A stretch of 25,720 bases of DNA, taken from the IMG/VR virus record IMGVR_UViG_2531839527_000012. The stretch is one strand, 5' to 3'. Below are positions 7,505 to 24,896 of the stretch, in pieces (within the stretch, counting starts at the first letter, position 1; each line of letters begins with the position of its first letter). This DNA comes from a virus. Lineage: Duplodnaviria > Heunggongvirae > Uroviricota > Caudoviricetes. The notes beneath the pieces are model-generated. The model ran no database searches, was not told the DNA's origin, and saw only the letters and a program-made list of their open reading frames with translations. The translations under genes and the position numbers were made by a program.

Positions 7505-8454
7505 ATGAAAATTTGTATCGACGACGGCTCCACCAACATCAAGCTGGCATGGACTGAGAACGGCGAACGCCGCAACGCCATCAGCCCGAACAGCTTCAAG
7601 TCGGAATGGTCTGCGCCGTTCGGTGGCACGCAGCCCGCGAACTACATGCTTGATGGCGTGCGCTATGGTTTTGATCCGGTCAGCGATCGCTTTGTCCAGA
7701 CGACCGACACGCAATACCAGTACAGCGATGTGAATGTATTGCCATTCATCACGCGCTGGTCAAATCAGGCATCACACCACAGGAGGTGGATGTGGTTGTC
7801 ACCCTGCCACTGAGCGAATATTTCGACACAAACGCACAGCCGGACATGGCCAACATCAACCGCAAAAAAGCGAACGTTATGCGCCCGGTGGAGTACCAGA
7901 ACGGCGAAGCATTCACTATCCGTAACGTCGGGTTATGCCTGAATCCATTCCGGCTGGCTTTAAGGCACTGGCTGACATGAGTCCGTTTGAATCCCTGCTG
8001 ATTGTGGATTTAGGCGGAACCACGCTGGATGTGGCAAAGGTTCAGGGCAACTGGCAGGATCAGCCAGGTGTTTTGCGATCCACACGTAGGCGTTTCCTGA
8101 TGCCGATGCCGTACTGTCGGTGATGGCCACTAACGGTATGCGACCAGTCACCAATCGCCAATACCATTATCGAACATCGCCGATGAAGCCTGGCTGCGCC
8201 AGCACATCCACAATGACGCGCATTACGCCAGCCTGATGGCGGTTATTCGTGAAAAGGAAGAAACACTGAAACAACGCGTGATCCGCGCGCTGGCGGGTTT
8301 TTCGGGTTACGGACGGGTGATGGTTGTCGGTGGCGGGGCGGAGATTGTGGCACCCGCTATCCGCGAAGCCTGCGGAGTTAATGCGACTTTCATCGCGGAC
8401 GGGGTGCCACAGTTTGCTCTGGTTAATGGGCTGTACGCAATGGACAAGGAGTAA
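7505..8454 (+). pseudogene. parM: ParM/StbA-like actin-type partition ATPase, disrupted by multiple frameshifts
   Basis: Four track ORFs (7505-7813, 7786-7980, 7935-8123, 8236-8454) plus untracked frame segments are colinear with plasmid R1 ParM from memory: IDDGSTNIKL (phosphate 1), [12 protein letters not shown] (phosphate 2), VMVVGGGAE (adenosine motif), and a C-terminal LVNGLY. At least four frame changes; the two junctions reconstructed (near 7740 and 7930) are single-nucleotide deletions. Confidence 0.75.
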
Positions 8455-8458
8455 ACCA

Positions 8459-8770
8459 ATGACGACACCAACCAGACGGATAAGTTTCTATCTGAAGCCC
8501 GCCGCCGTCAAGAACGAAGGCGAAGCATGCGCCTGGCTGGACAGCCTTACACCAGAAGCCCGCAAAAGTGGTCAACGCGTGGCTTTTCTGGCCGGGCTGG
8601 CACTACTGAAAATGAATCCGGCAGAGGCTTACCGACTGGCTGCATGGGCTGATGATGAGGCGTTATCAGTGACACAAACCAGGACAGAACGCCCCGCATC
8701 ACAGCCAGTATCAACCGCACAGATAACCAGTCAGATGGCCGGAAATATCCGGGCGTTATTTCCTGAATAA
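8459..8770 (+). CDS. parR: ParR-like partition adaptor / ribbon-helix-helix DNA-binding protein
   Basis: ATG 8459 lies 4 nt after the parM stop. MTTPTRRISFYLKP...AWLDSLTPEARKSGQRVAFLAGLAL resembles the R1 ParR N-terminus (IAFKLNPD...LDSIP...RAALTAGLAL) from memory. Confidence 0.6.
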   Translation: MTTPTRRISFYLKPAAVKNEGEACAWLDSLTPEARKSGQRVAFLAGLALLKMNPAEAYRLAAWADDEALSVTQTRTERPASQPVSTAQITSQMAGNIRALFPE

Positions 8771-8833
8771 CACAACATCAGGGCGAGTTCGCCCTGCTCT
8801 CCACCTCAGAACATAAACAAGGAGAACGACTTA

Positions 8834-21095: not shown

Positions 21096-23751
21096 ATGAG
21101 CACGAAATTTAAAACCGTTATCACTACTGCCGGAGCCGCGAAGCTGGCAGCCGCCACTGTCCCCGGCGGGAAAAAAGTAACTCTGTCTGCAATGGCCGTG
21201 GGTGACGGTAATGGCAAATTGCCGGTGCCGGATGCCGGTCAGACGAAACTGGTGCATGAGGTCTGGCGTCACGCTCTGAATAAAGTCAGCGTGGATAACA
21301 AGAATAAAAACTATATCGTGGCTGAACTGGTTGTACCGCCAGAAGTGGGCGGCTTCTGGATGCGTGAGCTGGGTCTGTATGACGATGCCGGAACACTGAT
21401 TGCGGTCGCTAACATGGCGGAAAGCTATAAGCCTGAACTCGCTGAAGGCTCCGGGCGCGCGCAGACCTGCCGCATGGTTATTACTGTCAGCAACGTGCGT
21501 CCGTTGAGCTGAGTATTGATGCCAGCACAGTGATGGCGACGCAGGATTACGTCGATGACAAAATCGCAGAGCATGAGCATCCCGCCGCCATCCTGACGCC
21601 ACGCTGACAGAAAAAGGTTTTACTCAGTTAAGTAGCGCAACAAACAGCACCAGTGAAGAGCTGGCGGCAACGCCAAAGGCAGTAAAAGCAGCCTATGACA
21701 ATGCTGAAAAACGTATGCAGAAAGACCAGAACGGTGACGATATTCCAGATAAGGGCGCTTTTCTGGACAATGTTGGCGTTACCAGCCTGACGTTTATGAA
21801 AAACAATGGCGAAATGCCGCTTGATGCTGACTTGAATACATTTGGTCCCGTTAAGGCTTATCTTGGCATCTGGTCTAAAGCAACATCCACCAACGCAACA
21901 CTGGAGAAAAATTTCCCGGAAGATAATGCTGTCGGTGTGCTTGAGGTTTTTGCAGCTGGCAATTTTGCAGGCACGCAACGTTTTATCACGAGAGACGGCA
22001 ATGTATACATGCGTAAACTCGCCAATAAGTGGAATGGCACTGATGGTCCGTGGGGCGTATGGCGTCACACTCAATCAGCTACCCGCCCTTTGAGTACGAC
22101 TATAGACCTGAATACGCTTGGAGCCGCTGAGCATCTTGGTTTATGGCGTAACAGTAGCTCGGCTATAGCTTCATATGAACGCAATTATCCAGAGGAAGGC
22201 GGCTTTGCTCAGGGGACGCTTGAGATCCTCGAAGGCGGGAATTATGGAAGAACGCAACGTTATACCACTCGTCGTGGGAATATGTACGTTCGCTGCCTTG
22301 CGGCAAGCTGGGATGCATCAAATCCGCAGTGGGAACCGTGGTTAAGAGTCGGTCATCAGTCAGAGAGCCGTTATTACGAAGGTGATTTGAATGTTCTAAC
22401 CGACCCCGGTATTTACAGTGTTACAGGAAAGGCGACAAACGGTCCGATGCTGGACGCTGCTGGGGCGACATTGCTTGGGATACTGGAAGTAATCAGGCGT
22501 TTTGATGGTGTATCTGTCTGGCAGCGTTACACAACCACAGGGAAATCAGAAACCACACAGGGGCGCACTTTTGAGCGCGTCTACGCCGGGAGCACATGGA
22601 CCGAATGGCGAGAAGTGTATAACTCCTTTTCGTTGCCCCTGAATATGGGGATCGGTGGCGCAGTGGCAAAACTCACCAGCCTGGACTGGCAGACCTACGA
22701 TTTTGTGCCGGGCAGTCTGATAACCGTTCGGCTTGATAACATGACCAATATTCCCGACGGTATGGACTGGGGCGTCATTGATGGCAACCTGATAAACATC
22801 GCAGTTGGTCCGAGTGATGATTTCGGTACGGGGCGCTCAATGCATGTATGGCGCAGCACTGCAAGTAAAGCGAATTACCGCTTTTTTATGGTTCGCATTT
22901 CAGGAAATCCGGGAAGCCGCACGATTACGACAAGACGTGTGCCAATTATCGACGAAGCTCAGACATGGGCGGCGAAACAGACATTCAGCGGTGGTCTTTC
23001 TGGCGAACTATCCGGCAATGCTGCTACAGCAACAAAGCTGAAAACGGCAAGGACAATTAACGGCGTAAAATTTGACGGCTCGGCAAATATTGAAGCGTTT
23101 CCGCCAGGTGTTCCGCTGCCGTGGCCATCAGATACGCCACCTGCAGGTTATGCAATCATGCAGGGGCAGACGTTTGATAAGGCAGCATATCCGAAACTGG
23201 CTATTGCCTATCCTTCTGGTGTTATTCCAGATATGCGCGGCTGGACAATCAAGGGCAAACCCGTCAGTGGTCGGGCCGTATTGTCTCAGGAACAGGATGG
23301 CATTAAATCGCACACCCACAGTGCCAGCGCATCCAGTACGGATTTGGGTACGAAAACCACATCGTCGTTTGATTACGGTACTAAATCAACGAATAACACT
23401 GGTGCACATACCCACAATGTATCTGGTACTGCAAATAGTGCTGGCGCACATACACATACCGTTCCATTAAGGAGACCAAACAGTGGAGGTATGAATTTCG
23501 ACTGGCTTGATGGTGCATCAAGTGGCACGGTGGTGGGGAATGGAACTGTGCCTTCTTCTGGCGCACATACCCACTCAGTATCAGGTACCGCTACAAGTGC
23601 TGGGGCACATGCACACACTGTTGGTATTGGCGCTCATACGCACTCTGTTGCGATTGGTTCACATGGACACACCATCACCGTTAACGCTGCTGGTAACGCG
23701 GAAAACACCGTTAAAAACATCGCATTTAATTATATTGTGAGGCTTGCATAA
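21096..23751 (+). pseudogene. H: Tail fibre protein, P2 gpH-like, two single-nucleotide frameshifts in the conserved N-terminal region
   Basis: 21096-21512 matches the P2 H N-terminus (VITTAGAAKLAAAT, LPVPDAGQT, VWRHALNK, PPEVGGFWMRELGLYDDAGTLIAVANMAESYKP). The match continues in the +2 frame ([25 protein letters not shown]) and then the +1 frame ([20 protein letters not shown]) into ORF 21715-23751. The C-terminal part is divergent and carries a histidine-rich repeat array. Confidence 0.85.
23305..23690 (+). repeat. Coding HxH repeat array in the tail fibre C-terminal domain
   Basis: Repeated units of the form GAHTHxVSGTAxSAGAH(T/A)HTV plus GAHTHSV and SHGHTI within H; this resembles His-x-His repeats in distal tail fibres of other phages. 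Confidence 0.6.
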
Positions 23752-24368
23752 TGGCATTCAGAATGAGTGAACAATCACGTACTGTAAAAATTTATAACCT
23801 GCTGGCCGGAACTAATGAGTTTATTGGTGAAGGTGACGCATATATTCCACCTCATACAGGGCTGCCAGCCAATTCTACAGATATCGCCCCACCGGAAATT
23901 CCTGCTGGCTTTGTGGCAGTTTTTAACAGTGAAAATGAATCGTGGAATATTGTTGAAGACCATCGTGGTAAAACGGTCTATGACGTGGCATCGGGGGACG
24001 CGTTGTTTATTTCTGAACCCGGACCGCTACCAGAGAATGTCACCTGGTTGTCGCCAGCAGGGGAGTATCAGAAGTGGGACGGCGTATCCTGGGTGAAGGA
24101 TGAGGAAGCAGAAAAACTGTTTCGGATACGGGAAGCGGAAGAGAAAAAGGCAAGGTTGATCCAGGAAGCAACAGATAACATCGCAATTCTGCAGGATGCA
24201 GTTAATCTTGAAATAGCAACAAACGAGGAAAATTCACAACTGGATTCCTGGAGAAAATACAGAGTATTAGTGAGTAGAATTGACACCAGTACAGCTCCGG
24301 ATGTCGTATGGCCAGAGCTGATGAATCAGGGTTATGTGCGGGAGGACGAGCAGATAACTTCAGACTGA
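23751..24368 (+). CDS. Tail fibre assembly protein (P2 gpG / Tfa family)
   Basis: 205 aa; ATG overlaps the H stop (TAATG). Assigned by position immediately after the tail fibre gene; family membership not verified. Confidence 0.7.
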
Positions 24369-24896
24369 AATTTAGTGATGAATGTTGAATCATCTGGAAT
24401 ATCATGCAATACCAATGCATGAGCACCTATTGTGACATTGTTTCCTATACGCACTTTGCCACCAAGAATGGTGGCATTACAACCAATGGTCACATTATGT
24501 CCTATAACAATATCCATATCATTAAAATCACCACGCAGCCCAATAGTTACCCCTGGTTTTATTGAACAATTTTCACCGATTGTTACTTTGTGACCGATAA
24601 CAACACTGTTGAGATAAGAAATATCATCGGGCATTATCTGAACATAAAACACTATCAGTAAGTTGGAGTCACTACCCAAGAATGAAACGTTCTATTTTCC
24701 CCGCAATCTTCCGGCAGTATCCGCCTTTATCAAAAAGGTATTTGGCTATGCGCCACCAAAATAAATAACGAAGTCTTCTATGTTTTATTGCGCGAACAAT
24801 TGCCTTTCGCCAGGAGAAAGGACGCTCGCTACCGATTACTTCATAGTGAATACAGTCTTTAAGTTCATTAATATTCATATCTCTATTATTCAGCAT
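24332..24896 (-). pseudogene. Hexapeptide-repeat (left-handed beta-helix) acetyltransferase, AT-rich, split by one frameshift
   Basis: Two overlapping minus-strand ORFs (24672-24896 and 24332-24679). The downstream ORF has tandem hexapeptide repeats (VIGHKVTIGENCSI, IVIGHNVTIGCNATI, VRIGNNVTIGAHALV); the upstream ORF has an N-terminal RLRYLFWWRIAKYLF segment. Both read ...FILG / ...FLGSDS around 24672-24680. Visibly more AT-rich than flanking phage genes. Confidence 0.7.

Follow-up and report, generated by a model that had tools for sequence, protein, structure and literature searches.

The window, a 25,720-nt stretch of DNA, corresponds to positions 23027-48746 of GenBank APXN01000063.1, from E. 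coli BCE030_MS-09 (ETEC; WGS APXN01), and the stored locus (L084) is identical to it and holds the letters A, C, G and T only. Judged by its relatives and gene order, it is a P2-like phage of the genus Xuanwuvirus (P88-like): P88 and PhiR44_2 match it at ~96% identity over 64-85% of the query, with collinear genes (Table 1). Window position 25720 is also the end of the contig, which stops inside the prophage. The BCE030_MS-09 data are 100-bp Illumina HiSeq reads assembled with Celera Assembler (PMC5469772), and a companion ETEC study from the same group had a mean coverage of >200x.

Table 1. Features of the window. Dropped bases are relative to the E. coli E1739 prophage, and each gap is given as the window base immediately 3' of the missing base.
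Feature	Coordinates	Strand	Dropped bases or remarks
P88-like (P2-like, Xuanwuvirus) prophage	1..25720	+	Assigned by relatives and gene order
Replication gene A	4589..7429	+	Intact; control without dropped bases
parM (StbA/ParM-like)	7505..8454	+	10: 7738, 7929, 8048, 8059, 8098, 8102, 8143, 8154, 8181 (two bases)
Portal Q and terminase large subunit P	9915..12712	-	Intact; control
N, major capsid	13727..14773	+	6: 14158, 14166, 14206, 14245, 14293, 14414
M, terminase small subunit	14819..15607	+	12: 15103, 15121, 15128, 15130, 15147, 15209, 15211, 15239, 15295, 15337, 15345, 15493
L, head completion	15709..16201	+	2: 16027, 16031
lysB (DUF2570)	17113..17519	+	1: 17345
J 3' end and I 5' part	20565..20672	+	12 in 108 bp, exactly on the haplotype switch. 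J: 20565, 20567; I: 20579, 20614, 20622, 20627 (two bases), 20628, 20637, 20640, 20667, 20672
H, tail fibre	21096..23751	+	2: 21497, 21580
LbetaH/hexapeptide acetyltransferase cargo gene	24332..24896	-	Hexapep Pfam hit; IS1 end fragment at 24627-24676

As the reference for an indel catalogue, we used the collinear, intact and near-isogenic prophage of E. coli E1739 (L003), which lies at the same btuC-adjacent site. Aligned to it, window positions 1-24626 carry 186 substitutions, 45 missing single bases and no insertions, and applying these substitutions and deletions to the E1739 prophage recreates the window exactly. The losses are concentrated in parM, N, M, L, lysB, the J/I junction and H. 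The original prediction, made from the letters of the sequence, was that parM, N, M, L, I, H and probably lysB need frame changes to recover their conserved proteins, and we found single-base losses in each; the four junctions it had reconstructed (7740, 7930, 21497 and 21580) are each a 1-nt deletion. parM is broken up into 4-5 ORF fragments, with deletion density climbing toward 8181. The losses in N and M come in multiples of three, so that the interiors of these genes are scrambled and not simply shifted, and the single loss in lysB produces an in-frame fusion with lysC, seen as a 185-aa gene call. No bases are dropped relative to E1739 in int, A, Q, P, O, X, holin, endolysin, R, S, V, W or G, and positions 1-7737 differ from E1739 by 3 substitutions only. 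Among the genes predicted to be uninterrupted, A, Q, P, V, W and int are indeed without losses, but J lacks two bases in its last codons. The comparison with E1739 revealed no nonsense substitutions, insertions or larger deletions, and once just the 45 bases are put back, 34 ORFs are intact and free of internal stops.

The dropped bases fall on positions at which related prophages differ. Using a panel of about 30-45 related prophages from IMG/VR, we found that 42 of the 43 testable deleted sites are polymorphic, compared with 12.5 on average and at most 24 for random sites in 2000 draws; at a minor-allele frequency of at least 0.1, 33 deleted sites are polymorphic against a null mean of 4.6. 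One deleted site, 14293 in N, is monomorphic across the entire panel. Third codon positions account for 31 of the 45 deleted bases (p = 1.2e-6), a share similar to that among real substitutions (129 of 185). An alignment to the closest intact P2-like prophage with a catalogue of indels and homopolymer context had been proposed as a check, and it places 30 of the 45 deletions at bases outside homopolymers, with 11 in runs of two, three in runs of three and one in a run of four.

The consensus around these sites is a mosaic of two prophage types. At 528 sites that discriminate E1739 from a second P88-like prophage, that of strain E1535, the window carries the E1739 allele at 349, the E1535 allele at 140, a deletion at 37 and another state at 2, and the E1535 allele is found at 141 of the 186 window substitutions. 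Differences between E1739 and E1535 coincide with 36 of the 45 deleted bases; the remaining nine, together with the monomorphic site in N, indicate either that these two strains are imperfect proxies or that a few losses have another cause. In parM, E1739 and E1535 differ at 9 of the 10 dropped sites, and all 10 are polymorphic in the panel; in M, one relative (L004) is unlike E1739 at 11 of 12. At both dropped sites of L, the alternative allele is present in many relatives that have no further mismatches, and both dropped bases in H are G in E1739 and A in E1535 and PhiR44_2. At the J/I cluster, the window agrees with both E1739 and PhiR44_2 at every base that it retains, and all 12 bases that it drops are ones by which those two differ; here the nearest relative switches from a PhiR44_2/E1535-like left flank to an E1739-like right flank. 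P88-like prophages occupy two distinct chromosomal sites in ETEC, btuC (E1739) and raiA (E1535).

To see how far the deletions recur, we looked at other assemblies. BCE032_MS-12, a sister assembly with the same ST2353, colonisation factors and pipeline as BCE030_MS-09, retains a base of the PhiR44_2 type at three sites where the window has a deletion, shares one of the four window deletions in the overlap (21497, with 21580 absent), and carries a private deletion at another G/T SNP. A third assembly of the project, MP021552.11, has an identical out-of-frame parM tail. Among complete E. coli genomes, the parM 7738 deletion was found in 0 of 1288, the H 21497 deletion in 0 of 344 and the N-to-lysis-region deletion set in 0 of 1039.

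The acetyltransferase gene had also been predicted to need a frame change, but it is interrupted by the end of an IS1 instead. The last ~50 nt of IS1 sit in place of 49 nt of the gene, with ~776 bp absent relative to a canonical IS1 insertion; strain L1_E925 carries a full IS1 with a 9-bp target duplication (CAAGAATGA) at the identical site, and a search of complete genomes found the truncated junction in none. On this sequence evidence, the lesion is separate from the dropped bases and represents a truncated IS1 insertion.

We consider it very likely that the frame disruptions arose in the draft assembly deposited for BCE030_MS-09, as an artefact of merging two P88-like haplotypes in the consensus, and the prophage in the cell is very probably intact in the affected genes. 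A consensus or assembly artefact and not a biological state is indicated by the placement of the non-homopolymer single-base losses on SNPs between two prophage haplotypes; the same two templates account for the mosaic of the surrounding consensus, the sister assembly differs in which SNPs are dropped, and the deletions tested are absent from complete genomes. Reads or unitigs of two close haplotypes, one resembling the btuC-site prophage of E1739 and the other the raiA-site prophage of E1535 and PhiR44_2, would have been merged into a single consensus that tracks one or the other over most of the region. Where the two were stacked on each other, usually at consensus switches, discordant columns would have been emitted as nothing, each emptied column leaving a 1-nt deletion on a natural SNP. 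The base-dropping step might lie in the Celera consensus or its handling of variant regions, or in the stripping of ambiguity codes, which possibly took place before submission. According to PMC3394418, which cites Denisov et al. 2008 for these "variant regions", Celera gives variant columns special window-based treatment; plain majority voting alone would not discard both alleles. We infer that the reads in SRR446831 contain allele mixtures at the 45 sites. The original prediction named no definite cause and regarded both ordinary pseudogene decay and uniform sequencing error as poor fits to the pattern; the placement of the losses on inter-haplotype SNPs agrees with this, and its interpretation is partly supported.

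For the second haplotype, another prophage of the same genome is a source that we judge roughly twice as probable as mixing or contamination of the library. A mixed library, arising from co-cultured E. coli or from lane or index carry-over, would generate the same artefact and is a possible, if less probable, source: many isolates were multiplexed in the project, the closest complete relative, E1739, has a single P88-like prophage as judged by the N-to-lysis region, and no second-copy P88-like contig was recovered from GCA_000356385.1. However, both haplotypes occur in two separate libraries of one ST (BCE030 and BCE032), and complete O6:H16 ETEC genomes have two places for the H region, with up to 7 per genome across E. 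coli. Furthermore, the contig ends within the prophage, as an intragenomic repeat predicts, and the BCE032_MS-12 contig is only 2.1 kb, both of which fit repeat-induced fragmentation.

A purely A/C/G/T window and stored contig would also be expected if the deposit had contained IUPAC ambiguity codes and a downstream copy, made by the collection or the window provider, had removed non-ACGT letters, which would leave every discordant site one base short and create no insertions. We regard this as improbable, since the submitter-annotated GenBank proteins ENB28275.1 (102 aa), ENB28285.1 (158 aa) and ENB28301.1 (138 aa) are already frameshift fragments, indicating that the deletions are in the GenBank deposit and that the annotated nucleotide record lacked the bases. 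The 158-aa N fragment, ENB28285.1, is RefSeq WP_001416416.1 and also has a UniRef100 entry.

Plain sequencing or base-calling errors in stretches of low coverage or poor quality, with no second template, could account for the clustering of the deletions and their rising density in parM, but Illumina HiSeq errors are substitution-dominated, and the read length and companion-study coverage given above also speak against it. Only 4 of the 45 losses lie in runs of at least 3 and none is an insertion, which is not a homopolymer-type error pattern, and random errors would neither match SNP positions nor leave a two-parent mosaic with 2 of 528 sites unexplained; we find this explanation very improbable. 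Real pseudogenisation, in which a cryptic, decaying prophage gathers true 1-nt deletions in its structural genes, appears more improbable still. The acetyltransferase IS1 insertion is genuine in other strains, degraded P2-like remnants such as that of L1_E925 exist in ETEC, and the 21497 deletion is common to two related isolates, which inheritance of a genuine mutation from a shared ancestor would also produce. By contrast, real mutations have no reason to hit other phages' polymorphic sites or third codon positions, all 34 ORFs are whole after repair with nonsense changes, insertions and larger deletions all lacking, the tested deletions are absent from complete genomes, and the same-ST BCE032_MS-12 has different lesions and alleles, contrary to clonal inheritance. 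True decay in this phage family takes the form of kilobase deletions and IS elements. An in vivo process, in which heteroduplex between co-resident P88-like prophages diverged by 2-10% is followed by aberrant repair that removes the mispaired nucleotide from each strand, leaving 1-nt deletions at SNPs in the exchanged tract, is barely credible, and would constitute a previously undescribed mutational signature that inactivates recombinant prophages.

In all likelihood the window derives from an unremarkable, intact P88-like prophage, and the analysis provided no evidence for its targeted inactivation. The assembly artefact proposed here carries a data-quality warning, with its signature present in at least three public ETEC drafts of one large Celera-assembled Illumina project. 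Artefact protein fragments, the N fragment among them, are now in reference resources, and assemblies of this kind will inflate counts of pseudogenes and of pan-genome genes, as well as calls of prophage intactness, that are based on them. The combination of deletions only, non-homopolymer context, third-codon-position bias and overlap with relatives' SNPs is a cheap, reusable diagnostic that can flag the artefact elsewhere.

With P88, PhiR44_2 (Xuanwuvirus, Peduoviridae) and the E1739 btuC-site prophage, the window shares the order int, A, parM, Q, P, O, N, M, L, lysis, tail/baseplate, H, G, and 96-99% identity, all of its genes matching once the 45 bases are restored; it is unlike them in the dropped bases, the truncated IS1 in the acetyltransferase gene and the fine mixture of E1739 and E1535 alleles. 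The L1_E925 remnant (NZ_LR883050.1) is likewise an ETEC P2-like prophage whose structural genes are non-functional and whose acetyltransferase has IS1 at the same site, but its decay consists of annotated partial genes and of deletions of kilobase size, which have joined N to V, truncated P and removed Q and parM; single-base losses by the dozen at synonymous SNP positions are no part of it. Errors of 454, Ion Torrent and Nanopore sequencing also leave many frameshifted genes in otherwise conserved regions, although these are homopolymer-focused and include insertions, whereas the window comes from Illumina data and its losses fall mostly on non-repeated bases. The closest parallel in kind is with collapsed-repeat or mixed-haplotype errors (the Celera variant regions), in which near-identical templates are co-piled, the consensus switches, errors lie at differing positions and contigs break at the repeat; such errors usually give chimeric alleles or ambiguity codes, whereas the window loses the discordant column outright, with 45 deletions and 0 insertions.

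The window is a P88-type P2-like prophage (genus Xuanwuvirus, Peduoviridae), collinear with PhiR44_2 and P88 at about 96–97% identity. A closer relative is the prophage in the complete genome of E1739, a diarrhoeal E. coli isolate from Bangladesh, which covers window positions 1–25000 as one collinear piece at 99.0% identity, adjoins btuC and has all its genes annotated as intact. Comparing window 1–24626 with this prophage base by base, we found that the window has 186 substitutions, lacks 45 bases and contains no insertion, a list that rebuilds it exactly. Default BLAST gap placement had produced three spurious compounds of a substitution plus a deletion and one false stop in M; with deletions-only placement the rebuild was exact and the M stop disappeared. 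No bases are missing from int, the early genes, A, Q, P, O, X, the holin, the endolysin, R, S, V, W or G, and once the 45 bases, and nothing else, are put back, 34 ORFs are intact, free of internal stops and with few amino-acid changes.

Missing bases relative to the E1739 prophage, and other features of the window (a missing base is placed at the window base just after the gap)
Feature	Position	Strand	Missing bases	Remark
Two small overlapping ORFs	192-867	-		100 and 127 aa; between prophage end and int
parM			10	
parM fragment	7505-7813			ENB28275.1
Stretch from ead/Ea22-like gene to Q	9425-9914			~490 bp
Sole ORF of that stretch	9390-9812	-		140 aa
O patch	13178-13409			no indels
N			6	
N fragment	13727-14203			WP_001416416.1
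M			12	
L			2	
lysB			1	
J, last codons			2	
I			10	
H			2	
J/I cluster	20565-20672			within J and I
Acetyltransferase cargo gene	24332-24896	-		IS1 end embedded at 24627-24676

The clustered frame disruption of the original prediction is therefore real: its four single-base-deletion junctions (7740, 7930, 21497 and 21580) are correct by the E1739 alignment, and A, Q, P, V, W and int, which it called uninterrupted, have lost nothing. J, placed in the same group, has two bases missing from its final codons. N and M do lose bases, as anticipated, but their totals are multiples of three, leaving the genes scrambled inside rather than simply shifted, and the frame change proposed for the acetyltransferase turned out to be a lesion of another kind, an embedded IS1 end. 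The check suggested at the time, alignment to the closest intact P2-like prophage with a catalogue of indels and homopolymer context, gave 45 deletions, mostly outside homopolymers.

The missing bases are not homopolymer errors, 30 of the 45 lying at non-repeated bases and only four in runs of three or more. Third codon positions account for 31 of 45 (p about 1e-6 for an expectation of one third), and the real substitutions are biased in the same way (129/185). We then used a panel of about 45 related IMG/VR prophages projected onto E1739 coordinates, allowing placement ambiguity only within identical neighbouring bases, and found that, of 43 deleted sites with data, 42 vary between relatives; 2000 random draws of sites from those genes averaged 12.5, with 24 the highest value. 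When only common polymorphisms were counted, 33 deleted sites qualified, the null mean being 4.6. Positions at which other phages differ cannot be singled out by a mutational process or by random read error, and the case is decided by where the missing bases sit: nearly all on SNP sites, and mostly at third codon positions and outside homopolymers. Inspection by eye of their flanks found no shared Dam/Dcm methylation motif. Programmed frameshifting was set aside, with 45 sites over eight genes and none in intact relatives.

The pattern of alleles points to two parents. In the densest group of losses, 12 in 108 bp at the J/I cluster, neither E1739 nor PhiR44_2 departs from the window at any base that was kept, and the 12 dropped positions are precisely those at which the two disagree. 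To the left of this cluster PhiR44_2 has 0–3 mismatches per 200 bp versus 3–8 for E1739; to the right E1739 has 0 mismatches versus six for PhiR44_2. As sole second parent PhiR44_2 was rejected, being perfect at the J/I cluster but fitting 5/10 parM sites, and the P88-like prophage of the ETEC strain E1535 is the better genome-wide proxy. At 528 sites that discriminate E1739 from E1535, the window has the E1739 base at 349, the E1535 base at 140, a deletion at 37 and another base at two; the E1535 allele explains 141 of the 186 window substitutions, E1739/E1535 differences coincide with 36 of the 45 lost bases, and the deletion runs are located where the consensus swaps between these parents. 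The other nine lost bases, all but 14293, are polymorphic in the wider panel, as expected if the true second haplotype resembles E1535 without being identical to it. The IS1-bearing prophage of ETEC L1_E925 was rejected for this role, with ~94% identity across J–H and without parM, M, L and most of N. The scaffold gene, O, holds a patch packed with about 60 substitutions relative to E1739. This patch carries the E1535 allele nearly throughout and closely matches relatives such as L007; it is either a natural mosaic or a tract in which the second haplotype was taken into the consensus.

The E1535 prophage lies at raiA/bamD, a different chromosomal place from that in E1739, and carries different cargo. 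Between its parR-like gene and Q (L088 6456-9739, in its own coordinates) it encodes an AAA-family ATPase and an S8-family peptidase, which could be a defence-type pair, where the window has the ead/Ea22-like gene; this position looks like a variable cargo hotspot. In E1739 no gene is annotated from the ead/Ea22-like gene to Q, and the sole ORF of this stretch has no family match. The two small ORFs beside int are kept in E1739 and gave no significant Pfam or PADLOC family; scanning the accessory ORFs with both resources returned nothing relevant.

Using a frameshift-specific protein fragment, we traced the truncated capsid product to one public contig, APXN01000063.1 (GCA_000356385.1); the window is identical to it, and window 25720 is the last base of the contig. 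An exact 46-mer over the J/I cluster had no match in viral, genome or metagenome contig collections. Because the submitter's own GenBank annotation of E. coli BCE030_MS-09 includes the fragments as proteins ENB28275.1, ENB28285.1 and ENB28301.1, the deletions are in the deposit itself and not from a later copy. This strain (BCE030_MS_09; APXN00000000, SRR446831, ST2353, CS1/CS3/CS21; Table S1 of Sahl et al. 2017, PMC5469772) was assembled with Celera Assembler from 100-bp HiSeq 2000 reads (PMC5469772); according to that study, assemblies were produced with SPAdes as well. The lesions are poorly reproducible elsewhere. The sister assembly BCE032_MS-12 (reads SRR446828), with the same sequence type, colonisation factors and pipeline, has a 2.1-kb contig over I–H that shares the 21497 deletion but retains PhiR44_2/E1535-type bases at 20667, 20672 and 21580, all three deleted in the window. 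At 20842, 20851 and 21022 it has the allele of the other parent, and at a further G/T SNP (window 20764) it has a deletion of its own. MP021552.11, a third assembly of the project, has the same out-of-frame parM tail by protein sequence comparison. Among complete E. coli genomes, the 7738 deletion occurs in 0 of 1288 having this parM segment, the 21497 deletion in 0 of 344 having this H segment, and the N-to-lysis deletions in 0 of 1039.

The SNP coincidence, the two-parent mosaic, the presence in the deposit and the non-reproducibility together make the merging of two P88-like haplotypes, with loss of discordant columns, the best-supported explanation. Reads or unitigs of both haplotypes would have been merged into one consensus, and columns where they disagree would have been emitted as gaps, giving single-base deletions. 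Celera Assembler gives variant columns a special window-based treatment, according to the passage of PMC3394418 that cites Denisov et al. 2008; the software step that dropped the base may be related to it. The second haplotype would more likely come from another prophage of this genome than from contamination. The alternative, a mixed library, fits the failure to retrieve a second-copy contig and the single copy of the N-to-lysis region in E1739; against it, the contig breaks inside the prophage, this phage type uses two attachment sites in ETEC, O6:H16 ETEC genomes show two places, and the same haplotype pair appears in two independent libraries. The window's contig breaks off within the tail tape-measure gene, and I–H lie on a short contig in the sister assembly; both suggest fragmentation at a repeat, caused by a second P2-like element. 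Excision in vivo of mismatched bases in a prophage–prophage heteroduplex is extremely improbable, because the identical lesions it predicts in clonal relatives and its occurrence in complete genomes were not seen.

The ACETYLTRANSFERASE lesion affects an LbetaH/hexapeptide acetyltransferase that in E1739 is intact at 181 aa; in the window, 49 nt of it are replaced by the terminal ~50 nt of IS1. In L1_E925 the IS1 at this site is complete and comes with the 9-bp target duplication CAAGAATGA; compared with that copy, about 776 bp are absent from the window, across a TCA microhomology of 3 nt. None of the complete E. coli genomes contains the truncated junction. The insertion is probably real, and its truncation may be assembler repeat collapse or a strain-specific deletion.

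The frame disruptions are not a novel biological feature. Their practical importance is that artefactual fragments are already in RefSeq and UniRef, the N fragment being both WP_001416416.1 and a UniRef100 entry, and other assemblies of the project probably carry the same signature. Consensus errors from collapsed repeats or mixed haplotypes are a known class, and this case belongs to it; its presentation is unusually clean and somewhat unusual in having deletions only, exactly at SNPs. Genuine decay looks different: in the P2-like remnant of ETEC L1_E925 (L089, NZ_LR883050.1 1984000-2019000), which like the window has IS1 in the acetyltransferase, kilobase deletions fuse N to V and, unlike in the repaired window, P is truncated and Q and parM are absent.
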